DNA of 30,259 nucleotides from a virus. Lineage: Duplodnaviria > Heunggongvirae > Uroviricota > Caudoviricetes. This document shows, piece after piece, positions 16,547-30,259 of the stretch. The notes under the pieces are model-generated. The model made no database searches and had not been told where the DNA came from. It saw only the letters and a list, made by a program, of their open reading frames with translations. Positions within the stretch are counted from its first letter, which is position 1. Every line of letters begins with the position of its first letter. The position numbers and the translations under genes were made by a program. Location: the IMG/VR virus record IMGVR_UViG_2718217795_000001, positions 1 to 30,259 of that record. The stretch is one strand, 5' to 3'.

Positions 16547-18316
16547 ATGACCATCTCCACCGATACAACCTTGTTGCATGACCCGCGACGGCAGGCATCG
16601 CTGCTTTACTGGCAGGGCTTTTCCGTGCCACAGATTGCCGAAATGCTGCAGGTCAAGCGCCCGACCGTGCAGAGCTGGAAGCAGCGCGACGGCTGGGACG
16701 GTATCGCACCGATTTCCCGCGTCGAAAGCAGCCTTGAGGCGCGCCTGATTCAGCTCATCGCCAAGCCGCAAAAGTCAGGCGGCGACTTCAAAGAGATTGA
16801 CCTGCTCGGGCGGCAGATTGAGCGACTGGCGCGCGTTAACCGCTACAGCCAGACCGGCAACGAGGTCGACCTTAACCCCAATGTCGCCAACCGTAACAAG
16901 GGCGAGCGTAAGAAGCCGAAAAAGAACTTTTTCAGCGACGAGGCTATCGGGAAACTGGAGGAATTATTTTTCGACCAGTCTTTCGAATACCAGTTGCAGT
17001 GGTACCGCGCAGGACTGGCGCACCGTATTCGCGACATTCTCAAATCCCGCCAGATTGGCGCGACGTTCTATTTTTCCCGCGAGGCACTGCTGCGCGCACT
17101 CAAGACCGGCCATAACCAGATTTTTCTTTCAGCCAGTAAAACGCAGGCTTACGTGTTCCGTGAATACATCATCCAGTTTGCGCGACTGGTCGACGTTGAC
17201 CTGACCGGCGACCCGATTGTCATCGGCAACAACGGCGCAAAGCTGATTTTTCTCGGTACCAATTCCAACACGGCGCAGAGCCATAATGGCGACCTGTATG
17301 TCGACGAAATTTTCTGGATCCCGAACTTTCAGCGGCTGCGCAAAGTCGCCTCGGGCATGGCCTCGCAAAAACACCTGCGCTCAACCTATTTTTCAACGCC
17401 CTCCACGCTGGCGCATGGCGCTTACCCCTTCTGGTCTGGCGAACTGTTCAACAAGGGGCGCAGCAGTATCACCGAGCGTATCGATATCGATATCAGCCAT
17501 ACCGCGCTCGCCGGTGGTCAGCTCTGCGACGATGGACAGTGGCGGCAGATTGTCACCATTGAGGACGCGCTTGCCGGTGGCTGCACCCTGTTTGACCTTG
17601 ACCAGCTCAAACGCGAAAACAGCGCAGAAGACTTTAAAAACCTGTTTATGTGCGAATTTGTCGACGACAAAGCGTCGGTGTTCCCGTTCGAGGAGCTGCA
17701 ACGCTGCATGGTCGACGTGATGGAAGAATGGGAGGATTTTGCCCCGTTCGCCGATTATCCATTCGGATCCCGCCCGGTCTGGATTGGCTACGACCCGTCA
17801 CACACTGGCGACAGCGCCGGGTGCGTCGTACTCGCGCCGCCGGTGGTCTCGGGTGGCAAGTTCCGCATGCTGGAGCGCCATCAGTGGAAAGGCATGGACT
17901 TTGCCGCACAGGCAGAGGGGATCCGAAAGCTGACCGAGAAATATAACGTTGAATACATCGGCATTGACGCGACCGGCCTCGGCCTCGGCGTTTATCAGTT
18001 GGTGCGCTCATTCTTCCCGGCAGCGCGCGGTATCCGTTACACGCCTGAAATGAAAACCGCAATGGTGCTCAAGGCAAAAGACACCATTCGCCGCGGCTGT
18101 CTGGAATACGACGCCGGGGCAACCGACGTCACTCAGTCGTTTATGTCCATCCGCAAAACCATGACCAGCAGCGGGCGCAGCGCCACCTATGAGGCCAGCC
18201 GCACCGAGGAAGCCAGTCACGCCGATATCGCATGGGCGACCATGCACGCCCTGTTAAACGAACCGCTTTCTGCCGGTAGCGGCATGCAGCCTAAATCTAT
18301 TCTGGAGTTCAACTAA
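16547..18316 (+). CDS. P: Terminase ATPase (large) subunit P, 589 aa
   Basis: P2 gpP-like sequence and size; ATG with GGCGAGG RBS; TAATG overlap with Q. Confidence 0.92.
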   Translation: MTISTDTTLLHDPRRQASLLYWQGFSVPQIAEMLQVKRPTVQSWKQRDGWDGIAPISRVESSLEARLIQLIAKPQKSGGDFKEIDLLGRQIERLARVNRYSQTGNEVDLNPNVANRNKGERKKPKKNFFSDEAIGKLEELFFDQSFEYQLQWYRAGLAHRIRDILKSRQIGATFYFSREALLRALKTGHNQIFLSASKTQAYVFREYIIQFARLVDVDLTGDPIVIGNNGAKLIFLGTNSNTAQSHNGDLYVDEIFWIPNFQRLRKVASGMASQKHLRSTYFSTPSTLAHGAYPFWSGELFNKGRSSITERIDIDISHTALAGGQLCDDGQWRQIVTIEDALAGGCTLFDLDQLKRENSAEDFKNLFMCEFVDDKASVFPFEELQRCMVDVMEEWEDFAPFADYPFGSRPVWIGYDPSHTGDSAGCVVLAPPVVSGGKFRMLERHQWKGMDFAAQAEGIRKLTEKYNVEYIGIDATGLGLGVYQLVRSFFPAARGIRYTPEMKTAMVLKAKDTIRRGCLEYDAGATDVTQSFMSIRKTMTSSGRSATYEASRTEEASHADIAWATMHALLNEPLSAGSGMQPKSILEFN

Positions 18317-19362
18317 TGGGTAAGCAAAAATCCCGCAAAGCCGCTGCGCAGAAGGCCAGCAAGCCACAACACCTGACCGCCAGCGCACCGCCAAAAACAA
18401 CAGCTTTCACCTTCGGCGAGCCGGTGCCGGTACTCGATAAGCGCGACATTCTGGATTACGTCGAGTGCATCAGTAACGGCAAGTGGTACGAGCCGCCGGT
18501 CAGCTTCTCCGGGCTGGCAAAGAGCCTGCGCTCTGCTGTACATCACAGCTCACCGATTTACGTTAAGCGCAACGTGCTCGCGAGCACCTACATTCCGCAC
18601 CCGTTGCTGTCCCGTCAGGATTTCAGCCGCTTTGCGCTCGACTATCTGGTATTCGGCAATGCCTTTCTTGAGCAGCGCCACAGCGTCACCGGCCAGTTAA
18701 TCAAGCTGCTGGCCTCACCGGCCAAATACACCCGGCGCGGGGTCGACGATTCTATATTCTGGTTTGTGGAAAACTTCACTCTACCGCATGAGTTCGCGCC
18801 TGATACGGTGTTTCACCTGCTGGAGCCCGATATTAATCAGGAGATTTACGGCCTGCCCGAATATCTCAGCGCGCTTAATTCTGCCTGGCTGAATGAATCC
18901 GCGACGCTGTTCCGCCGCAAGTATTACCAGAACGGCGCGCACGCGGGTTACATCATGTATGTGACCGACCCGGCGCAGAGCGCGACCGACGTCGAATCGC
19001 TGCGCGAGGCGATGCGAAACTCGAAAGGGCTCGGCAACTTTAAGAACCTGTTTTTCTACGCTCCCGGCGGAAAACCGGACGGCATCAAAATCGTGCCACT
19101 GAGTGAGGTCGCCACAAAGGATGACTTTTTCAACATCAAGAAAGCCAGCGCCGCCGACCTGATGGACGCGCACCGCGTACCGTTCCAGCTCATGGGCGGC
19201 AAGCCCGAGAATATCGGTTCGCTCGGTGACGTTGAGAAGGTGGCAAAAGTATTTGTGCGTAACGAGCTGTCACCCCTGCAGGACAGGTTCAGGGAGGTAA
19301 ACGACTGGCTCGGCATGGAGGTCATCAGGTTCAAAGAGTACACCCTCGACAACCCGGAATAA
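18316..19362 (+). CDS. Q: Portal protein Q, 348 aa
   Basis: P2 gpQ-like sequence and size; followed by terminator and cos. Confidence 0.92.
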   Translation: MGKQKSRKAAAQKASKPQHLTASAPPKTTAFTFGEPVPVLDKRDILDYVECISNGKWYEPPVSFSGLAKSLRSAVHHSSPIYVKRNVLASTYIPHPLLSRQDFSRFALDYLVFGNAFLEQRHSVTGQLIKLLASPAKYTRRGVDDSIFWFVENFTLPHEFAPDTVFHLLEPDINQEIYGLPEYLSALNSAWLNESATLFRRKYYQNGAHAGYIMYVTDPAQSATDVESLREAMRNSKGLGNFKNLFFYAPGGKPDGIKIVPLSEVATKDDFFNIKKASAADLMDAHRVPFQLMGGKPENIGSLGDVEKVAKVFVRNELSPLQDRFREVNDWLGMEVIRFKEYTLDNPE

Positions 19363-19395: not shown

Positions 19396-19538
19396 ATACC
19401 CCGCCACCATCACGCCTCAGATGCGCCACACGCGCACCACCACACCCGACCACCAACGAACCGACAGCGACCACGACCGCGCCATCACGACGCGCTCAGA
19501 CGATAATTTTTATTATTACGCACCACCGCTGGCGCGCA

Positions 19539-19557
19539 ATGCTTTCCCCGCCACGCC
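19539..19557. other. cos site, 19-nt cohesive end of 186 type
   Basis: Plus strand ATGCTTTCCCCGCCACGCC is the reverse complement of GGCGTGGCGGGGAAAGCAT, the cohesive-end sequence I recall for phage 186 (P2 differs at 2 positions); lies adjacent to Q as expected. Confidence 0.7.
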
Positions 19558-19651
19558 TGCCCGCTTAACGGGTCGCTTTTAATGCAGGTGCATCAGGAGC
19601 CCCGAGCCGCGCCAGCGCTGGCGCTGGCTCACAAATTCTGGAATCAAAAAC

Positions 19652-19681
19652 GCATGCAATTTAATGCAAGATAATGCATTC
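19652..19681 (+). repeat. Three tandem ~10-bp repeats with core ATGCA(A/T)
   Basis: cgcATGCAAt / ttaATGCAAg / ataATGCATt, helically phased, ~110 bp upstream of the cassette start codon. Confidence 0.5.
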
Positions 19682-19730
19682 AAATTGAGTTTATGATACT
19701 GATCGGTCAGTCATGCCTTCATTCTTAGGT

Positions 19731-19760
19731 TTGATATGGCACAGGCTACCTTGTAACAAT
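19731..19760 (+). promoter_or_regulatory. Candidate sigma70 promoter of the AT-rich cassette
   Basis: TTGATA (19731-19736), ~18-nt spacer, TG-extended AACAAT (19752-19760); AAGGTG RBS 6 nt before the ATG at 19789. Confidence 0.35.
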
Positions 19761-19788
19761 TAGGGATTTTTCAAAAAGGTGACTACCC

Positions 19789-20847
19789 ATGGCAGGTGAA
19801 ACTCAAAATATTTCAGCAATGGCGGAAAAGATATCTTCCGATTTATTTAAGTGGTTCAAGTGGGAGCTTGTTGGGGTAACCAATGAAAACTTTCAGTGTT
19901 TGAAGTCTACGCAACATAAAACAAAGTCTGGAACACACCCGACTGATGTTGTTTTTTCCTATAAGGATCCATACTTAAATCGGACGATTTTTTTAAATAC
20001 AGATTTAAAAAGTTATGTAAAAGGGTCGATAACAGCAACCTCAATGCGAAACGCATTAGTCTCATTGGCTAACTCTATTGATTGCGCAGAAGGTAGCAAG
20101 GAATGGAAGGATAGATACTCTTATCAAAGTGGCTCTTCTGAGGTTAGAGGAATGCTCTTTGTATATAATCATGATGGTGAGTTTGACAGATCGTTCTATG
20201 ATGTGTTTTATCAGTCTTATAATGCAGAAACTGATAAAACAAAACGGGGTATTAACCTTGATAATATTCCTCTAAAACAAGGTCAGAAGATTCATATTAT
20301 TGAGCCGAGAACTATAAATTATTTGCAATCAATAATTACGGACTTGTCTCAACTGAGTCACAATCGAGAATTTCCTTTAGGTAAAAATTACCAGTTCTTT
20401 TACCCAGACCTATCACTTCATAAAGTTAGCGGGTCACCTGAAGAACACCCGGCAACAGTAGAGTTGTTAACGGGGCCTTTTTTGATAATTAAACACAACG
20501 ATGTTAAACATTGTGATGAAGAAACTTTAGAGTGGAAAACAACCTATAAGCATGGTTATGTTATTTATTACAATGGCGAGGGTAATAATGAATTAGAGTT
20601 TGTTTATATTCTTGATACGTTATCAAAATACCAACTCTTGGATGGAAATGAAAAGATAAGAATTAGAATTGTACATCCAAGCATTTATAAAGATGTTCGC
20701 AGTATTTTTATGCGTGCTAAGGAAACATACTGTAGAGAATGGGGTTTCGATGAACATAAAAAAACCATCATTGATGCCATTGATTTTCACCAAGTTGAAT
20801 TTACAAAACCTCACTTCAGTTCTGTTGAGATTGGTTGGGAGCGATAA
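19789..20847 (+). CDS. Cassette gene 1: hypothetical protein, 352 aa, possible PD-(D/E)xK nuclease fold in N-terminus
   Basis: ATG with RBS; ~35% GC; N-terminal pattern E26 ... PTD52-VVF ... IFLNTD72-L-K74 fits a restriction-endonuclease-like core; no Walker A/B. Confidence 0.6.
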   Translation: MAGETQNISAMAEKISSDLFKWFKWELVGVTNENFQCLKSTQHKTKSGTHPTDVVFSYKDPYLNRTIFLNTDLKSYVKGSITATSMRNALVSLANSIDCAEGSKEWKDRYSYQSGSSEVRGMLFVYNHDGEFDRSFYDVFYQSYNAETDKTKRGINLDNIPLKQGQKIHIIEPRTINYLQSIITDLSQLSHNREFPLGKNYQFFYPDLSLHKVSGSPEEHPATVELLTGPFLIIKHNDVKHCDEETLEWKTTYKHGYVIYYNGEGNNELEFVYILDTLSKYQLLDGNEKIRIRIVHPSIYKDVRSIFMRAKETYCREWGFDEHKKTIIDAIDFHQVEFTKPHFSSVEIGWER

Positions 20848-20849
20848 GT

Positions 20850-21974
20850 ATGAAAATCGGTTTGTATAGCGTTAATGACAAAGCTATGTTTGATGCTCTC
20901 AATCAAACAAAGGTGACTCATGAAGACATGAAAAGCCTTTTTTTCAAAAGAGGCACTATTATTTCTAAGGATACAAAACGGAAGACTTTAGCTTTGGATT
21001 TTTCGAAGAACTTCCACGGCTATTATGACTTTGAATATTTATCAGAAATTCTTGGATCTGTAGGGAGAAGAGAGAAAGTATCAATTAATATTGTCAACAG
21101 TGCAATTAGTTTAAGTGATATGGAAGTCACAATAAAATCTATATGTGAAGAATTACAAAAAGAGGGGGATGTAACAAATATCAATTACACCGAGAATGGA
21201 TTTGAGGTGTCAGTAAAATATGTCAAGCTGGATTTTAAAATGAGCGAGTTTCGGCAATCCTCATCTCGCGAGGCTAAAATACAAGTAGAGTTGAATGATG
21301 AGGGAGAGTATATTACGCGCTTCCCTCAGAATGCCAAGGCACATGAGTTTAATGAACTTTTGATTAAAAAAATAAAAGAAACTAATAATGATGAGCCTGT
21401 AAGTCTTGAAGAGATATCGCTTGAAACGGTCAAAGATTCAAATGAACGTAGTCGTTTCTTTAAAGAACTGATCGTTAGTATGCCAAATTACAAATGTGTC
21501 GATGTGTCAGATGTTTATGTCACCCATCCAGTATTAGAGGTTAAAAAACCATCTGAATCTGAAGATGATGAAGATGACTCGGATGAGGATGATGATGCTG
21601 TAATAGACACTGGGTATCATATTTCAAAGGCATCATTGAAAGGAAGGGGTGTCCTTGAATCACCAGAACTGGAAGAGTTATTGGGTAATGGGTTTTACAT
21701 TACAAAGATAATATGGAGTTCGGTAGTCGAAGGTTTTAAAGACTCCGATAAGTATGAATTCGAAGCCCAGTTTGTGGATCCGGATAAATGTAAGCTGTTT
21801 TCTTATCTCGTTCGTGGATGTTATAAATATAAAAAAGTAAATGTGTTTACTAATCGGCAAAATGTGGATAAGGAAAAAGAAAATGTGCTATTATTATCAA
21901 TAGAAAAAACGGCTCGAGAAATCTCTAATAGAATAATATCTTTAAATACTCTCGAGGTAGTCACTGAAAAATAA
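20850..21974 (+). CDS. Cassette gene 2: hypothetical protein, 374 aa, with poly-acidic linker
   Basis: Track start is a TTG at 20835 overlapping gene 1; ATG at 20850 follows GGGAG RBS and lies 2 nt after gene 1 stop. Run SESEDDEDDSDEDDD at nt 21552-21596. Confidence 0.6.
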   Translation: MKIGLYSVNDKAMFDALNQTKVTHEDMKSLFFKRGTIISKDTKRKTLALDFSKNFHGYYDFEYLSEILGSVGRREKVSINIVNSAISLSDMEVTIKSICEELQKEGDVTNINYTENGFEVSVKYVKLDFKMSEFRQSSSREAKIQVELNDEGEYITRFPQNAKAHEFNELLIKKIKETNNDEPVSLEEISLETVKDSNERSRFFKELIVSMPNYKCVDVSDVYVTHPVLEVKKPSESEDDEDDSDEDDDAVIDTGYHISKASLKGRGVLESPELEELLGNGFYITKIIWSSVVEGFKDSDKYEFEAQFVDPDKCKLFSYLVRGCYKYKKVNVFTNRQNVDKEKENVLLLSIEKTAREISNRIISLNTLEVVTEK

Positions 21975-21985
21975 AAGGAGTTGTT

Positions 21986-22657
21986 ATGAAAACAAAATGG
22001 TTTACTGCCAACTTCCCTGCCGGTCTCGATAGGTTATACCAGGCCATCATAAACACGCCTTTTGACAGTGACAAAGGTTGGGGGTTTAGTATTCTTTCAT
22101 ATGAAGATAAGTATATATCTTCAAAATATATTGAAAGGGTTGAGGTAAGCGAAGTAATCATAGACCCCTATGGTAATGAAACTGAGTTTAATCATTTCAA
22201 ATATGTGCAGTTTAACTTTTGGTTTTTTAAAGCTCAAGGCGGTAACTTCATTTTAATAATTGATTCTCCGCCTAGAAGTATCAAGGGTTTTATCTCCAAT
22301 GTGATTAAGGCAACTGAATCCGATTTTAATGTTTCTTATCTTGTGATTCAAATTGATGAGTTTATAAAATTTATCACGCCTCACTTCGAAAAGGTTCAGG
22401 TGCACAAGGCCAAATTAAAGGATTTGACTTTTAGTAAAAATACATCTGGCATTTTAGAACTTGAGTCTTCAAATGACGCGATAGATGAGATGAGAAATAT
22501 TTTTAAAAATGCAAAATTCACGATTGATAAAGTTAAATTGAGTGTTAAATCTAACACTGGCAATGAAACATTAGAAGTGAATTCCAATGGTTCTCTTAGC
22601 TTCTCAGAGGAGCTTTTTGATAAGATATTCTCTGCAGTTGAGCGTTTCACTTTCTAA
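21986..22657 (+). CDS. Cassette gene 3: hypothetical protein, 223 aa
   Basis: ATG 11 nt after gene 2 stop with AAGGAG RBS; AT-rich; no recognisable motif. Confidence 0.6.
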   Translation: MKTKWFTANFPAGLDRLYQAIINTPFDSDKGWGFSILSYEDKYISSKYIERVEVSEVIIDPYGNETEFNHFKYVQFNFWFFKAQGGNFILIIDSPPRSIKGFISNVIKATESDFNVSYLVIQIDEFIKFITPHFEKVQVHKAKLKDLTFSKNTSGILELESSNDAIDEMRNIFKNAKFTIDKVKLSVKSNTGNETLEVNSNGSLSFSEELFDKIFSAVERFTF

Positions 22658-22666
22658 GATAGAGTT

Positions 22667-22706
22667 GAAAAGCACTCTTAGTAAAATAAGGGTGCTTTTC
22701 ATTTTA
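22667..22706 (+). terminator. Rho-independent terminator after the cassette
   Basis: Stem AAAGCAC(tctta) / (taagg)GTGCTTT with loop, followed by TTTTCATTTT, 10 nt after gene 3 stop; near-palindromic so possibly bidirectional. Confidence 0.6.
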
Positions 22707-22847
22707 ACTTTAAAAGTTTTTCGAAATCCGAAAGTGTTCGCGAGATTTGTTACCTCGTATTCATTTTGATTAGCGAGTTTTTATCAAGGTCAATGCTCTT
22801 ATAGGTATCGAAACCTGAGCCCGCATGTAATACCCGGAGCTTAAATT

Positions 22848-23030
22848 CTATTCGGCTTTATAGAAAATATCCGGGTCATCCTCAGCACTTTCACTGTTCG
22901 CTAAATCAGCAATAAGAGTGAGTGCGAGCTTAAGGTCTGACGGTTTGCAATTTGCAATCAGAGACACCTCTGCAATGAATTGTACACAAGCCCACTTTTG
23001 CTGAGTTCGGCTGAAATGTTCGCCAACCAT
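22848..23030 (-). CDS. Small SOS-regulated ORF, candidate Tum-like antirepressor (possibly truncated), 60 aa
   Basis: ATG with GGGAGGG RBS, about 20 bp downstream of a near-consensus LexA box; occupies the position between gene A and cos where 186 carries tum. No sequence homology asserted. Confidence 0.4.
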   Translation of the reverse strand: MVGEHFSRTQQKWACVQFIAEVSLIANCKPSDLKLALTLIADLANSESAEDDPDIFYKAE

Positions 23031-23052
23031 GAAATCCCTCCCATAGAGTTTT

Positions 23053-23072
23053 TACTGTATGTTTGTACAGTA
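23053..23072 (-). promoter_or_regulatory. LexA operator (SOS box)
   Basis: TACTGTATGTTTGTACAGTA: perfect CTGT-N8-ACAG core, 17/20 match to the TACTGTATATATATACAGTA consensus, very similar to the E. coli recA box. Confidence 0.8.
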
Positions 23073-23143
23073 TCACGTATTGGCAAAAGATGGGAAGAGG
23101 AAAAAAACGTTAGAGTGATGTATGTGCATGATAAGGATGAAAA

Positions 23144-25372
23144 TTAACTATCAATTTTTGTTGCCGCTTCGGCTAAATCCGCAACGCGACGTAGAATCTT
23201 TCTGGCTTGAGACTGTTGTGACGGTGCTGCGGAAAATACCTCTCCTTTAGCTGTTCCACGCAACCATTTACCGTTAAAGCAACTCTTACCACCTGCCATA
23301 AGGTGCAGGGCTTCGCCCCGGCTGATGGTGATGCCGGTAGTGAGACGTATCTCGTCGATAGTTTTCGACAAAGCTGCATTTTGTTCGTCCGTTCCGTGGA
23401 TGAATTTTCGTCGTGTTGACGGTTTTTGCTTCCTCAGTCGGCTCGCCAGCTCTCGTCTTTCTGACCGACTCAGTGATTTTGTTAAATCCAATATCGGTGG
23501 ATCGCTTTCGCTTCCCGTACAGTTATTGACAGAACTCCGAGAGGGCGCAGGAGCGCCCTTAACGTCAACGGCCAAATCAACGGCACGCTTCGGCACAATT
23601 TTCCACTGCGTTAGCCGGGTTAAAATCGGGGTGCCAGCACCGACAGCGGAATCGTACACGCCACGGATGCAGACGGTTTCCTCACCATACTGGTTAAACT
23701 CGGCGCGCGGTTCATACAGCGTGCGCACCTGCAAATCATCGCGACGGACAAACGGGCCACCCTGCGCATTAACGTAACCAGCCCAGTCACCGGCGTCAGC
23801 GGCATCATGGACGGCGGCAAACTCAACGCTCAGACCGTGTGCGGTCTCGGTATCAGCGAGGCGACGCAACTCACGGTAGACCGTCACTGGCGCACCACCG
23901 ATAAACTGAAACTGACGGATGTGCCAGCGTGCCGCCCATGCCGAAACGGCGGGGGCTGTTTCTTTCAGCAGCTCACCGCTTTCGTCATCGGTTTCACCAT
24001 CAAGAGCATAGCCGTCGATATTTTTCGAAATGTATTTAGCTACATAGCCGGTAGCGCTCCCCTTTTCCGGGTCAATGGCCTCGGCATGAAAGCGAGCTTT
24101 TTTGGCTTTATCGCTTCTCAGTTCGTGGTGGTCTTCCTCCCACGCATAATCACGGATGATGAGGCGCACGCGCTCGACGTCTTCCGGCAACATGAACATA
24201 AGCATGTGCCAGTGCGGCGTCCCGTCGTGATGAGGCTCGGCAACACGTATGCCGAAAATGCGGATTTCTTCCCGGTGCAGCTTGGCGCGAATGCGCGCCC
24301 AAAGGCCGGTGAGATAGCTCTGCGTGTCCAACGGGCTGGCACCGTTCCATTTGCTGTTACGGTAGCCTGCTTTGGTGGTGGCGTGATATTTAGACGGTGC
24401 GGTCAGGGTGTAAAACTCACCGACATAACCGAGCTCATTGCAGATGTTTTCAAAACCACGGATACGGGTCATCAGCTCGCAGCGGCGTATCGCAGGGTTA
24501 GCGACCGAACCGTCGTATTTTTCAATCAGGCTGATGCGGTTGCCGTCTTCATCTTCGAGATCCAGCCCCTTGAGAAATTCACGCGTGCGGCGCTTCTGCT
24601 CACGCCAGTCGGTCACGCAGTTTTTACTCGCGTAGGCGTGTCGTTTTTTGCTGACATTTCCGACGGCAATTTGCAGATGTTCGCGCCATGCAGCCGCAAT
24701 GCGACGCAGACGACCACGCCACCACACATCGTTAAACATACGAGCGATAGCCGGGGCGATTTCATCTTCTCCGACATATTTTTTAGTCACCCGCTCCCAA
24801 TGCGGAGGGGTGACATTGAATTGCAGAGAAATAATACCGGCGCGCATGTACCAGGTGTACAGCGTTTTTAGCTCGCTAAATCCGGTGTCATCAATGTCAG
24901 CCAGTTCAGCACGAATGAAATTAGCAATATCAGCGGCCAGCAGGTCAATATCGGCGCGCGACATATCAGGGAGGCGGTTATATCTGGCGACTATGTTGAC
25001 CATGCGTGACGCCAGATATTGCATGAGCTGGGTATCAAAATGACCACCAAAAACAGTGGCCGATAAGTTGCTGTTGATACCCGCGCACTGATATTTTTTT
25101 GCGACCAGTTCAAGACGTGGTAATGCCTTTTTGCAGAAGCTGATTAAAAAGGCATTGGCTCGTTGACTGCCCTGATTTTGCTCCAGCACCGCAGCGGTGC
25201 GATAAACATCAAAGCGCACGCACTCGGGTTGGAGCGAAAGCACTTTTCTCGCATGCAGCAAAGCCGCGAACATACGGTCGCGGCGATACTGTTGGTCATA
25301 GGTAAGATATGGGCTGGCTATTGCTGACCGTGGAGCGTTCCACGGGTAAGCAAAGTTAACGCTTACCCGCAT
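23144..25372 (-). CDS. A: Replication initiation protein A (rolling-circle nickase), 742 aa
   Basis: P2/186 gpA-like sequence and size; last gene of the early lytic operon. Confidence 0.9.
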   Translation of the reverse strand: MRVSVNFAYPWNAPRSAIASPYLTYDQQYRRDRMFAALLHARKVLSLQPECVRFDVYRTAAVLEQNQGSQRANAFLISFCKKALPRLELVAKKYQCAGINSNLSATVFGGHFDTQLMQYLASRMVNIVARYNRLPDMSRADIDLLAADIANFIRAELADIDDTGFSELKTLYTWYMRAGIISLQFNVTPPHWERVTKKYVGEDEIAPAIARMFNDVWWRGRLRRIAAAWREHLQIAVGNVSKKRHAYASKNCVTDWREQKRRTREFLKGLDLEDEDGNRISLIEKYDGSVANPAIRRCELMTRIRGFENICNELGYVGEFYTLTAPSKYHATTKAGYRNSKWNGASPLDTQSYLTGLWARIRAKLHREEIRIFGIRVAEPHHDGTPHWHMLMFMLPEDVERVRLIIRDYAWEEDHHELRSDKAKKARFHAEAIDPEKGSATGYVAKYISKNIDGYALDGETDDESGELLKETAPAVSAWAARWHIRQFQFIGGAPVTVYRELRRLADTETAHGLSVEFAAVHDAADAGDWAGYVNAQGGPFVRRDDLQVRTLYEPRAEFNQYGEETVCIRGVYDSAVGAGTPILTRLTQWKIVPKRAVDLAVDVKGAPAPSRSSVNNCTGSESDPPILDLTKSLSRSERRELASRLRKQKPSTRRKFIHGTDEQNAALSKTIDEIRLTTGITISRGEALHLMAGGKSCFNGKWLRGTAKGEVFSAAPSQQSQARKILRRVADLAEAATKIDS

Positions 25373-25644
25373 AGTTCCCCCATTTGTCTACGCTGTATGC
25401 TTAGCATCACATAGCCGGGAGCCCACTCGCTAAGGTCAGTTATATGAGTCACCAGCACGTAGACAAAAGCGCCGGTAAAACCGACCTTTTTCGGGTCATA
25501 TACGCAGGCTCCGTACTCGTTTAAGCAAAGTAAATCCCCTACAGCAAAATCACGGTCAGCACGGCGAAACTCGGCTTTTTTTGTTCCATTGATGACAGCC
25601 TGAAAAAACTCAGGCCGAATTTTTAGTTGATGTGTTTTTCTCAT
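25363..25644 (-). CDS. Small early protein, DUF3850/ASCH-like (tentative), 93 aa
   Basis: Track start 25671; internal ATG at 25642-25644 forms an ATGA overlap with the upstream gene stop, suggesting coupling. Motif KIRPEFFQAVINGTKKAEFRRADRDFAVGDLL resembles ASCH/PUA-like small proteins (from memory). Confidence 0.5.
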   Translation of the reverse strand: MRKTHQLKIRPEFFQAVINGTKKAEFRRADRDFAVGDLLCLNEYGACVYDPKKVGFTGAFVYVLVTHITDLSEWAPGYVMLSIQRRQMGELCG

Positions 25645-25913
25645 TCCACCGCCTTGATAGAGGAGGCGCATATTTCTCCGATACGCTCAATTTCAGATGC
25701 CATTGCGTCAAGCGTGGTAATTGATGACTGCTGAATATGATGATGAATCAGCCCGGAAATAAGCTGGTTAATTTTCGGGTAATAACCGATGGTATCGAGC
25801 CATTCCTCACCAGCTTTTTTACCTGACTTAACGACTTTCTTTTCATTCAGGATGAATTGATATTGGTCGCTGGTAATAACCCATTTGTTGCTAACTTCGA
25901 TACGAATACTCAT
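25641..25913 (-). CDS. Hypothetical early protein, 90 aa
   Basis: ATG start, tightly packed in early operon; function not recognised. Confidence 0.45.
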   Translation of the reverse strand: MSIRIEVSNKWVITSDQYQFILNEKKVVKSGKKAGEEWLDTIGYYPKINQLISGLIHHHIQQSSITTLDAMASEIERIGEICASSIKAVE

Positions 25914-27974: not shown

Positions 27975-28838
27975 ATGAGTTCTGAACTCGATGTTCAGTG
28001 GCGTATAGGTGCATCAAATGGCGTGTTAGAGCGCGTAATGTCAGCCTATGGCGTCAAGATGCAAAAGGATTTAGCTGACCTGTTGGGCATCGCTAAACAC
28101 AGCGTTAGTGGCTGGGTTCAACGCGATGCAATACCCGGCAATGTCATAGTTAGGTGTTGTCTTGATACTGGTGCTGATATCAATTGGCTTGTAAGTGGTG
28201 AGCTTGCAAATGCAAAACATGAGCGAGTCGGTTGCAAGCTAAAGGGCAAAGAACTCTATGACGAGATCATGACGAACGGGGGCAAAACCGTTTTGCGCAG
28301 AATTCTTGATGCTTATGGGTTTACGATGCAAAAAGAGCTTGGTGATTTATTGGGTATTTCTTCCGGCACTATAAGCACTTGGGTCAGGCGTGACTTTTTC
28401 CCGGGCGATGTGGTGGTGACCTGCGCACTTGACACTGGCGTTTCGTTGGAGTGGCTTTCTACAGGCAAAGGCAAGATGCGAGAAGGCAGGGAAAGTGAAT
28501 CTCTTAGCGCCTTAACAGTAAGAAAATGTCGCCTTGAAGCTGGCGAGCTTAAAGATATTGGGCGTTGGACTCCAGACCTTACAATGGTTCCTGAAAACAT
28601 TGATGAATTGATCTTTATTGATGGAGTAGGCGCATCTTGGCTTGTTGATTGTTCTAACTCAAAGATCGGTAATGGTCGTTGGCTTATTGGCATTGATGGT
28701 GCGCTCGATGTTTTTGATGTCATCAGGTTACCAGGTGGAAAGGTCAGGCTTTCAAATAAGTCTGCGGAGTTTGAATGTAATCTTTCAGACATCACACCAT
28801 CAGGTGCAGTGATTTTTACTTTGGAAAAGCATGTTTAA
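27975..28838 (+). CDS. cI: CI-type immunity repressor with tandemly duplicated N-terminal HTH domain, 287 aa
   Basis: Divergent from the early operon; residues 17-75 and 106-164 are ~50% identical copies of a 186-CI-like HTH module; distinct C-terminal domain. Confidence 0.7.
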   Translation: MSSELDVQWRIGASNGVLERVMSAYGVKMQKDLADLLGIAKHSVSGWVQRDAIPGNVIVRCCLDTGADINWLVSGELANAKHERVGCKLKGKELYDEIMTNGGKTVLRRILDAYGFTMQKELGDLLGISSGTISTWVRRDFFPGDVVVTCALDTGVSLEWLSTGKGKMREGRESESLSALTVRKCRLEAGELKDIGRWTPDLTMVPENIDELIFIDGVGASWLVDCSNSKIGNGRWLIGIDGALDVFDVIRLPGGKVRLSNKSAEFECNLSDITPSGAVIFTLEKHV

Positions 28839-28847
28839 GGAGCAGTT

Positions 28848-29186
28848 ATGAAAAAGTTATTATTTTTGATGGCCGGTATCGCGCTTTCTTCCTCAGCCTT
28901 AGCCGCTGAGAAATTTAAAGAGATTGATAGTAAATCTCTTGGTGATAAGTGGCCGCTTACCTTTGAGCATGCAAAAGTATCTTGTGTAAACAGTCACTAC
29001 GTTTTTGTTTATGACACTGACACGGATGAACGCTACCCCTTAAGCGGCATGGCTAAGAACGCCGTCAAGTCTGGAAAAATGGAAGGGCGAGATTTAAAAG
29101 AAGTTCTAAAAAAAGACCCTAACGATCCATTAGAACGAGCTGATATTGCTCCTGTTTTCAGTGAAGCCATAGCGCTTTGTGAATAA
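28848..29186 (+). CDS. Secreted small protein (moron) between cI and int, 112 aa
   Basis: AAGGAG RBS; N-terminal signal peptide MKKLLFLMAGIALSSSALA-AEK with AxA cleavage site; AT-richer than the backbone. Confidence 0.65.
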   Translation: MKKLLFLMAGIALSSSALAAEKFKEIDSKSLGDKWPLTFEHAKVSCVNSHYVFVYDTDTDERYPLSGMAKNAVKSGKMEGRDLKEVLKKDPNDPLERADIAPVFSEAIALCE

Positions 29187-29209
29187 AAATATTTGGCCTC
29201 GGTGTAGCT

Positions 29210-30259
29210 ATGACAGTTAGTAAGCAAAAAAACGGTAAATGGTTATGCGAGCTTTATCCAAACGGTAGGGAAGGGCGGCGTATTCGTCGGCATTTCAATA
29301 CAAAAGGTGAGGCCGAGGCATTCGAAACATTTACGAAGAATGAAAGTGAGGACAAGCCTTGGCTCGGCAAAAAAGAAGATCGCCGACGCTTAAGCGAGTT
29401 GATTCAACTCTGGCATAACCTGCATGGACAGGCTTTAGTCGCCAGTAAGTCGCGGTTAGCAAAGCTGCAAATTGTGTGTAACGGTTTGGGCGACCCAATT
29501 GCATCCCGCTTTACCGCTAAAGATTGGGCTCATTACCGCGACCGCCGACTCCGTGGTGAAATAGACAACGGATATCATAAAGACCCGGCGAAATGGGTCG
29601 CCAAACCCATAACCGTGAATCGTGAGCAGCAATATCTTATAGCTGTGTTTAATGAGCTGCGGCGGTTAGGGGAATGGAGTTTACCCAACCCACTGGAAGG
29701 GGTGCGCGTATTCAAAGAAGCCGAGAAAGAAATGTCCTGGCTAACTCTTTCTCAAATCCCTGAGCTGTTTCGAGCCTGCGAGCAATACGGCAAAGAGGAT
29801 CTCACGATGATTGTCAAAGTCTGTCTTGCAACCGGCGCAAGATGGGGGGAGGCCGAGAGATTGACACGGCCTCAACTCTCTCCCTGCAAACTGACTTTCA
29901 CAAAAACCAAAGGTAAGAAAAATCGCACCGTTCCCATTCCTAAATGGCTGTATGACGAGCTAGCCGAACGTCAGGGCAGAATGTTCAAGCCCTGCTATCA
30001 GGAGTTTAAAAAGATGCTCAAACTCACGAATATCGAGCTAACTGAAGGGCAAAAGACGCATGTCCTGAGGCATACATTCGGCGCGCATTTTATGATGAAC
30101 GGCGGAAACATACTGGTACTGCAGAAAATCCTCGGACATTCCAACATTCGCGAAACAATGAGATACGCGCACTTTGCTCCTGACCATTTAGAGCAAGCCG
30201 TCTCTCTCAATCCTCTTTCTCTCTATGTTGGCGACAATATGGCGGCAGAGGTTGCATAA
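29210..30259 (+). CDS. int: Tyrosine integrase (P2/186 Int family), 349 aa
   Basis: C-terminal catalytic signature HVLRHTFGAHF ... LGHSNIRETMRYAHF; last gene before the expected att site; stop codon is the last 3 nt of the window. Confidence 0.93.
   Translation: MTVSKQKNGKWLCELYPNGREGRRIRRHFNTKGEAEAFETFTKNESEDKPWLGKKEDRRRLSELIQLWHNLHGQALVASKSRLAKLQIVCNGLGDPIASRFTAKDWAHYRDRRLRGEIDNGYHKDPAKWVAKPITVNREQQYLIAVFNELRRLGEWSLPNPLEGVRVFKEAEKEMSWLTLSQIPELFRACEQYGKEDLTMIVKVCLATGARWGEAERLTRPQLSPCKLTFTKTKGKKNRTVPIPKWLYDELAERQGRMFKPCYQEFKKMLKLTNIELTEGQKTHVLRHTFGAHFMMNGGNILVLQKILGHSNIRETMRYAHFAPDHLEQAVSLNPLSLYVGDNMAAEVA

Follow-up and report, generated by a model that had tools for sequence, protein, structure and literature searches.

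A probable divergent member of the 3HP defence family in the cos-to-A hotspot of a 186/P2-like prophage, with a GAPS4a-type nuclease and two partners of predicted RdgC/Iml3 fold

The DNA analysed here is a stretch of 30,259 nucleotides (nt) of a virus of the class Caudoviricetes (IMG/VR record IMGVR_UViG_2718217795_000001, positions 1 to 30,259), which we refer to as the window. Between the cohesive-end site (cos) and replication gene A of a 186/P2-like prophage, the window carries three tightly coupled open reading frames (ORFs) on the + strand, named here hp1, hp2 and hp3, and we are highly confident from homology that they constitute a defence cassette of the 3HP family. By the same evidence the cassette is a divergent member, or subtype, of this published and validated family. 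The explanation that accounts best for all the observations, and that we consider likely, is a divergent 3HP cassette in which a DNA clamp made of Hp2 and Hp3 would license the deoxyribonuclease (DNase) Hp1. The three genes are the following.

19789-20847, + strand: hp1, 352 amino acids (aa)
20850-21974, + strand: hp2, 374 aa counted from the ATG; an alternative TTG start at 20835 gives 379 aa
21986-22657, + strand: hp3, 223 aa

A search of the PADLOC database, judged by E-value, gave a single full-length match for each protein. Hp1 matched PDLC03004 (E 3.4e-65, residues 1-345 on model positions 1-325 of 333), Hp2 matched PDLC03005 (E 6e-36, residues 4-365 on 4-351 of 359) and Hp3 matched PDLC03006 (E 4.9e-8, residues 2-202 on 3-200 of 227). 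The genes are adjacent and co-directional in the order hp1-hp2-hp3, as 3HP requires. BLASTP alignments with the experimentally validated proteins of Escherichia coli E1114 were collinear and near full length for Hp1 (35% identity, E 5e-70), Hp2 (31%, E 4e-38) and Hp3 (20%, E 1e-10). This prototype, listed as "hp + hp + hp" and carried on plasmid pFR109 (Table S2A of Rousset et al. 2022, Cell Host Microbe, PMC9122126), was cloned from a P2-like hotspot and protected against one of eight phages, P1. In DefenseFinder 3HP bears the name Rst_3HP and is marked as mostly prophage-borne. A closer E. coli cassette (WP_024160514, WP_001398851 and WP_032238998), given in Table S5 of the same paper (PMC9122126), is identical to Hp1, Hp2 and Hp3 at 87%, 80% and 73% of amino acid positions, respectively.

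The homology of Hp1 extends to a nuclease of another defence system. The Pfam domain PF26115 (PDDEXK_GAPS4) is precomputed on every Hp1 homologue listed, its name already implying the link to GAPS4a, and the E. coli homologue is annotated by NCBI as a PD-(D/E)XK nuclease. In an alignment of 38 Hp1 sequences that included the validated prototype, residues H50, P51, D53, D72, L73 and K74 were invariant; the resulting HPxD...DxK motif has the canonical PD...(D/E)xK arrangement, with H50-P51-x-D53 and D72-L73-K74 as putative catalytic residues. For a direct comparison, the GAPS4a and GAPS4b sequences of E. coli RiKo were extracted from the AlphaFold3 model files in the supplement of the GAPS4 preprint. 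HHalign paired the Hp1 profile with the single GAPS4a sequence at 94.5% probability and with a GAPS4a profile at 97.6% (E 3e-12, 235 columns). Hp1 D53 aligned with GAPS4a D49, the residue that is changed in the D49A mutant used as the inactive GAPS4-RiKo control (GAPS4 preprint). The NCBIfam GapS4a model scored 41.6 bits over Hp1 residues 6-214, its cut-off being 270, and a search of the PDB with the Hp1 alignment profile returned no significant match. Judged by motif and profile similarity, Hp1 is a PD-(D/E)xK nuclease homologous to GAPS4a, and by analogy it is the predicted DNase effector of the cassette.

An earlier note on this DNA had read the three genes as a candidate uncharacterised anti-phage system whose architecture matched no well-known multigene system and which lacked any recognisable nuclease signature. 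A categorically new system would fit with the result that the installed Pfam-A collection gave no significant match, only noise, for Hp1, Hp2 and Hp3, that in PHROGs all three proteins fall in families of unknown function only, and that the literature searched mentions 3HP only in censuses and holds no published mechanism for it. All three proteins nevertheless match the PADLOC 3HP models, they are directly homologous to a published and validated system from the same hotspot, and homologues bear the Pfam PDDEXK_GAPS4 domain; to a categorically new system we assign next to no probability. Because of the PADLOC matches and the collinear homology to the validated prototype, the architecture is not an unknown one: profile searches assign all three proteins to a known system, 3HP. 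What stands of the earlier interpretation is the anti-phage family, borne out by the Hp1, Hp2 and Hp3 matches and by homology to the P1-protective prototype, together with the cassette's place as cargo of a defence hotspot; the novelty and the missing nuclease signature have to be given up in view of PADLOC and PF26115.

GAPS4 consists of GAPS4a and GAPS4b (Mahata et al., bioRxiv 10.1101/2023.03.28.534373 and 10.1101/2025.09.07.674715). According to these preprints linear DNA or DNA breaks activate it as a non-selective DNase, the outcome being abortive, and GAPS4b is predicted to form a ring. Using a GAPS4a alignment built from File S1 of the preprint, we fetched 12 GAPS4 loci from genomes and treated the gene downstream of each GAPS4a as GAPS4b; the proteins so obtained are 25-96% identical to that of RiKo. 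HHalign aligned an Hp2 profile with the GAPS4b profile collinearly from the N-termini over 213 columns (score 40.6, E 1.6e-4, probability 51%), and a global alignment ran end to end (E 1.4e-5). The control scores were 13.6 and 15.2 for reversed profiles, 15-21 for unrelated profile pairs and 19.0 ± 3.5, with a maximum of 30.6, for 60 block-shuffles. When the Hp2 proteins of Aliarcobacter, Azospirillum and Halobacterium were included in a broader Hp2 profile, the score was 51.9 (E 4e-6, probability 86.8%), and the GAPS4b hidden Markov model matched the Azospirillum Hp2 directly. Since the HHalign scores lie well above the controls and hp2 occupies the same position as the GAPS4b gene, directly downstream of the homologous nuclease, Hp2 is probably a distant homologue of GAPS4b. 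The best-aligned region of Hp2 includes its predicted N-terminal four-helix domain, which aligns with the N-terminus of GAPS4b. In the published GAPS4 model, GAPS4a is docked on a helical globular domain of GAPS4b.

The similarity to GAPS4 did not extend to the whole cassette. Hp2 had no NCBIfam match, Hp3 showed no similarity to GAPS4b, and neither an Hp3-like ORF nor a conserved third gene was present in the 12 GAPS4 loci. With three genes, an Hp1 score below the GapS4a cut-off and a variant motif, the cassette is not a member of GAPS4. Even so, the analogy suggests that it may well work like GAPS4. No paper linking 3HP with GAPS4 or RdgC was found in the literature searched.

Structure prediction places Hp2 and Hp3 near a family of DNA-binding folds. 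The AlphaFold2 model of Hp2 had a mean predicted local distance difference test (pLDDT) score of 80.4 and a predicted template modelling (pTM) score of 0.70; for Hp3 the values were 92.1 and 0.85. Hp2 is predicted to comprise the N-terminal four-helix domain, an alpha/beta core of RdgC/Iml3 type and an acidic disordered loop, and its best Foldseek matches were Iml3, CENP-N and Chl4 (E about 1e-3). As modelled, both Hp2 and Hp3 resemble the DNA-encircling RdgC/Iml3 fold, and it is by fold only that either would count as a member of the RdgC family. RdgC is a ring dimer that encircles DNA, and RexA, a non-specific DNA binder involved in phage exclusion, shares its fold (PMC11077077). On this basis Hp3 is predicted to be a stand-alone protein of RdgC/Iml3 type serving as the third subunit, and Hp2 is predicted to be a DNA-binding scaffold or sensor. 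A profile-profile comparison of Hp2 with Hp3 found no similarity, even with 182 Hp3 sequences, so a common origin of the two by duplication is suggested by the fold only. Neither protein has an NCBIfam assignment. The loop of Hp2 is located as follows.

21537-21608 (Hp2 residues 230-253): acidic disordered loop KPSESEDDEDDSDEDDDAV, between the two halves of the fold, pLDDT <50

The loop was acidic in every homologue inspected, the haloarchaeal one included. It could be a DNA mimic, an autoinhibitory element or a bait for a phage protein.

Taken together with what is reported for GAPS4, these features lead to the following model. Hp1 would be the effector, a PD-(D/E)xK DNase. Hp2 would contribute its N-terminal helical domain and a DNA clamp of RdgC/Iml3-type fold, and Hp3, a second and stand-alone protein of that fold, would join Hp2 in a ring or horseshoe on DNA. 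The clamp would detect an abnormal DNA state brought about by the infecting phage, for instance breaks, free ends or linear molecules, and detection would license or release Hp1, which would then degrade DNA and so stop the infection, probably killing the cell. Complex formation, DNA binding, the trigger, DNA degradation and the abortive outcome are all inferred by analogy with GAPS4. That the cassette is a GAPS4-like DNase triggered by the state of DNA has, in our judgement, at best an even chance of being right.

The main rival is the same machine with a phage protein instead of DNA as the trigger: Hp2 and Hp3 would hold Hp1 inactive, in the manner of a toxin-antitoxin or guard system, until a phage protein, for example one from P1, released it. 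A held toxin is released by a phage protein in PARIS and in some abortive-infection systems. The protection of the prototype against P1 only, among eight phages, suggests such a phage-specific trigger, and the conserved acidic disordered loop of Hp2 could mimic DNA or serve as bait. All characterised members of the Hp2/Hp3 fold (RdgC, RexA and Iml3-Chl4), however, bind DNA, and GAPS4, the nearest relative to have been characterised, reacts to DNA breaks and not to a phage protein. We regard a protein trigger as unlikely.

Several observations count against a divergent 3HP cassette with a clamp-licensed DNase and lower our confidence in it. On the side of family and effector, Hp3 is just 20% identical to the prototype Hp3, and Hp1 lies outside the curated GAPS4a family because it reaches 41.6 bits where 270 are required. 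The Foldseek TM-scores for Hp2 were low (0.2-0.34), RdgC itself was outside the top 50 Foldseek matches of Hp2, no cassette protein had a Pfam RdgC match at E<=1, and PDB profile searches with the Hp2 and Hp3 alignments returned no significant chain. A single GAPS4b sequence compared with Hp2 gave nothing, the signal needing profiles on both sides, and the homology between Hp2 and GAPS4b rests on HHalign probabilities of 51-87% computed without secondary-structure scoring. The prototype protects against one of eight phages (PMC9122126) whereas GAPS4 protects broadly, and the mechanism of GAPS4 has been described in a preprint. Linear DNA as the trigger is also awkward in a phage that makes linear genomes with cos ends.

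The arrangement of the three genes is conserved well beyond this prophage. Homologous triads were confirmed by hmmsearch with our own Hp1, Hp2 and Hp3 profiles. Chromosomal triads were found in Vibrio cholerae, Pseudomonas syringae and Cupriavidus; on plasmids, a triad adjoins HNH and AAA-ATPase genes in Aliarcobacter, and another is present in Azospirillum. Hp3 by itself forms 750 representative clusters at 50% identity, all of them stand-alone proteins of about 220-240 aa, from several bacterial phyla and a haloarchaeal plasmid. The triad is widespread, being conserved in several proteobacterial classes, in Campylobacterota and on a haloarchaeal plasmid.

The haloarchaeal triad, on a plasmid of Halobacterium sp. 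DL1 (CP007061.1, 2807-5773), has the permuted order Hp3 (233 aa), Hp1 (322 aa), Hp2 (433 aa). Its nuclease was matched about equally well by the Hp1 (E 2e-13) and GAPS4a (E 4e-14) profiles, and the triad may represent a bridge from 3HP to GAPS4. In Cupriavidus sp. USMAHM13 (CP017751.1, 1-11077) the triad lies in a defence island between genes for a NACHT/PNP protein, an HTH-AbiEii pair and a KAP-family NTPase. A divergent variant (363, 415 and 215 aa, with Hp1 about 28% identical) was seen on an Enterobacter hormaechei plasmid (NZ_CP133858.1, 4001-6994), where it adjoins relB and an ISNCY transposase gene; the divergent variant occurs on 14 plasmids of Enterobacter, Klebsiella and Citrobacter.

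This distribution bears on a further alternative, in which the cassette would benefit the phage itself. DNA-binding proteins similar to RdgC and RexA would influence RecA, the SOS response or the choice of the prophage between lysis and lysogeny, and Hp1 would have a part in processing or recombining DNA. RdgC inhibits functions of RecA and RexA biases the lambda switch (PMC11077077), and the cassette adjoins a predicted tum/DinI-type gene with a LexA-box-like site, described below. The triad, however, is not confined to prophages: unrelated phyla carry it in defence islands of the chromosome and on plasmids. A homologue cloned alone protects against P1 (PMC9122126), and the locus has been proven to be a defence hotspot whose cargo is exchanged. 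A role of this kind is very improbable in our estimate.

More tentatively, and with less than even confidence, we suggest that 3HP and GAPS4 are sister systems that share an ancient module, in which a GAPS4a/Hp1 DNase is docked on a DNA clamp of RdgC fold. In 3HP the clamp would be a heterodimer similar to Iml3-Chl4, composed of the long Hp2 and the short Hp3; it would encircle or cap DNA and, where that DNA is abnormal, license the nuclease. If this is true, the RdgC fold (in RdgC, RexA, GAPS4b, Hp2 and Hp3) would be a recurrent sensor of DNA state in prokaryotic immunity that reaches into the archaea.

The earlier note had described three co-directional and tightly coupled genes of 352, 374 and 223 aa, each with its own ribosome-binding site, within an AT-rich segment (about 35% GC) of a GC-rich backbone. 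The ORF calls confirm the sizes and the gaps of 2 nt (hp1/hp2) and 11 nt (hp2/hp3), and Shine-Dalgarno-like sequences precede the starts of hp1 (AAAGGTGA), hp2 (GGGAG) and hp3 (AGGAG). The GC profile is far from uniform, being 34.7% in the cassette versus 55.2% in the rest of the window, and GC at third codon positions is 0.30-0.35 in the cassette genes versus 0.72-0.73 in the portal and terminase genes. Two candidate signals flank the genes.

19731-19760, + strand: candidate sigma-70 promoter (TTGATA, 18-nt spacer, AACAAT, extended -10 TG), 29 nt 5' of the hp1 start
22666-22701, + strand: hairpin resembling an intrinsic terminator (15-bp stem, 6-nt loop, T run), 9 nt past the hp3 stop

A promoter and a terminator belonging to the cassette had been proposed, and the two parts of this claim fared differently. 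The hairpin, which is inverted repeat I8 (93% complementary), is a strong terminator-like structure, and eight terminator-like sites were found in the region where 2.4 were expected. The promoter candidate is well positioned and matches at consensus level only; promoter-like sites were not enriched in the AT-rich region (10 found versus 11.4 expected from shuffled sequence) and are thus no commoner than chance. An Rfam scan of the window gave no RNA family, and no direct or inverted repeats suggestive of a transposon were found flanking the cassette.

The very low GC and a promoter match no better than chance are what one would expect of an inactive or silenced relic, that is, foreign DNA rich in AT that is kept silent by a repressor such as H-NS and no longer serves a function. 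Such a relic is nevertheless highly improbable. The three ORFs are intact and each has its own ribosome-binding site, the catalytic residues are invariant, and proteins 96-100% identical to those of the cassette are found in several Enterobacteriaceae. In comparison with the E. coli cassette, the proportion of nonsynonymous differences (pN) was 0.07-0.15 for the cassette genes while that of synonymous differences (pS) was saturated, and all three genes are therefore under strong purifying selection.

The cassette occupies the interval between cos and gene A, as the earlier note had placed it, and is convergent with gene A since that gene lies on the - strand and the cassette on the + strand. 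The surrounding features are listed below.

16547-18316: terminase gene, left of cos
18316-19362: portal gene, left of cos
19539-19557, no strand assigned: cos cohesive-end sequence, the exact reverse complement of the 19-mer GGCGTGGCGGGGAAAGCAT; left border of the hotspot
23030-22848, - strand: 60-aa ORF between the cassette and gene A, with a LexA-box-like site just upstream
23144-25372, - strand: replication gene A (Pfam Phage_GPA, E 5e-135)

The 19-mer GGCGTGGCGGGGAAAGCAT is what we take to be the cos sequence of phage 186, and positions 19400-19557 of the window align with the cos end annotated in Erwinia phage EtG. Cos lies between the arms of an inverted repeat (GCACCACCGCTGGCGCG / CGCGCCAGCGCTGGCGC, 88% complementary, 19520-19624), the right one of which belongs to a GC-rich palindrome at about 19598-19631; the repeat may have to do with recognition by terminase or with where the late operon ends.

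Comparison of the cos-to-A interval supported the view that the cassette is horizontally acquired and exchangeable cargo of a variable defence hotspot, as had been supposed. A megablast search of 19400-23140 against 50,697 phage records matched 26 of them, at the flanks (cos side and A side) only, and the cassette itself was present in none of the 50,697 at megablast level. A match was obtained in 80 of 5,426 complete E. coli genomes, again mostly at the flanks only and with other cargo in between (SIR2 and sets of hypothetical genes); nine of these genomes carry a three-gene cassette with 76% nucleotide identity in the same portal-cos-cassette-A position. Related phages and prophages thus share the flanks and hold other cargo, which agrees with the known behaviour of the hotspot. 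Hp1 was 100% identical, with the same context and the same gene calls, in a near-identical prophage of Enterobacter hormaechei that holds the 186-type genes Fil, CP76 and CI, and relatives of Hp2 and Hp3 with 96-99% identity were found in Cronobacter and Enterobacter. The carrier is a 186/P2-like, more precisely 186/PSP3-like, prophage of an Enterobacter-type host.

The 60-aa ORF and its LexA-box-like site are additions to what had been described before. The palindrome TACTGTATGTTTGTACAGTA lies at 23054-23073, just upstream of the ORF. The product had no Pfam or PADLOC match; since DNA of this segment (22889-23140) matches regions annotated as tum, TumA or DinI in PSP3- and 186-like phages and in E. 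coli prophages, the ORF is probably an SOS-controlled gene of antirepressor or DinI type. On the other side of gene A, directly upstream and overlapping its start, the ORF at 25363-25671 (- strand) is 39% identical (E 3e-21) to P2 orf91, which sits in the hotspot beside tin and old; this ORF also gave a weak PADLOC match to the candidate PDC-M11B (E 7e-5). Within 27975-30259, a 349-aa ORF (29210-30259) has its stop codon at the exact end of the window. Its equivalent in the E. hormaechei prophage is the integrase, which there follows a 186-type CI repressor and a YebY-like gene, and because of this synteny the window probably covers the prophage up to its integrase end.

As a find of a genome scan the cassette is ordinary: annotation with PADLOC or DefenseFinder would name it, and its family had already been validated in the same hotspot. 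Its value is mechanistic, 3HP having been without assigned domains or mechanism since 2022. The link between Hp2 and GAPS4b, the predicted RdgC/Iml3 fold of Hp2 and Hp3 and the conservation of the triad are new. The links of Hp1 to GAPS4a and of Hp2 to GAPS4b, together with the predicted folds, lead to a testable model, which names residues D53 and K74 and a trigger (DNA breaks or linear DNA) and poses the question of what Hp3 adds.

Among known systems, restriction-modification was considered and rejected, as no methyltransferase domain was present in the three proteins and no methyltransferase is encoded between cos and gene A. P2 old and tin occupy the same genomic position and have the same general role, that of a prophage function excluding other phages, but they have no homology to the cassette proteins. 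Old, an ATPase, carries a nuclease domain of the TOPRIM type. The cassette proteins had no PADLOC match to Old or Tin, and Old/Tin was rejected. Lambda RexA (of RexAB; PDB 8TWQ; PMC11077077) has the fold that is also predicted for Hp2 and Hp3. Its partner RexB, however, is a membrane protein, whereas in the cassette the partner is the nuclease, a soluble protein, and none of the genes encodes a membrane protein; RexAB was rejected for want of a RexB-like membrane (ion-channel) partner. RdgC of E. coli (PDB 2OWL), Iml3/CENP-L and Chl4/CENP-N differ from Hp2 and Hp3 in that no sequence similarity was detected between them. Hp2 has an N-terminal helical domain and an acidic loop in addition to what RdgC has, and RdgC is a housekeeping modulator of RecA without coupling to a nuclease.

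GAPS4 resembles the cassette in having a nuclease, GAPS4a, to which Hp1 is homologous with the essential aspartate aligned, and in a partner, GAPS4b, that is predicted to form a ring, Hp2 being predicted to have the fold of a ring-former. It differs in consisting of two genes, or one fused gene, whereas 3HP has hp3 as a third gene in every triad examined; in its motif, HGxD...SxK as opposed to HPxD...DxK in Hp1; and in its broad phage range, that of the 3HP prototype being P1 only. GAPS4 has been described as a 2:2 heterotetramer. With the 3HP prototype the differences are the low identities (35%, 31% and 20%) and the carrier, which is 186/PSP3-like and belongs to an Enterobacter-type host here, while the prototype is from E. 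coli. In both, three genes of comparable size (333, 359 and 227 aa versus 352, 374 and 223 aa here) run in one direction and follow each other in the same order; the two also have in common the gpQ-cos-gpA hotspot of a P2-like prophage and full-length homology of all three proteins.

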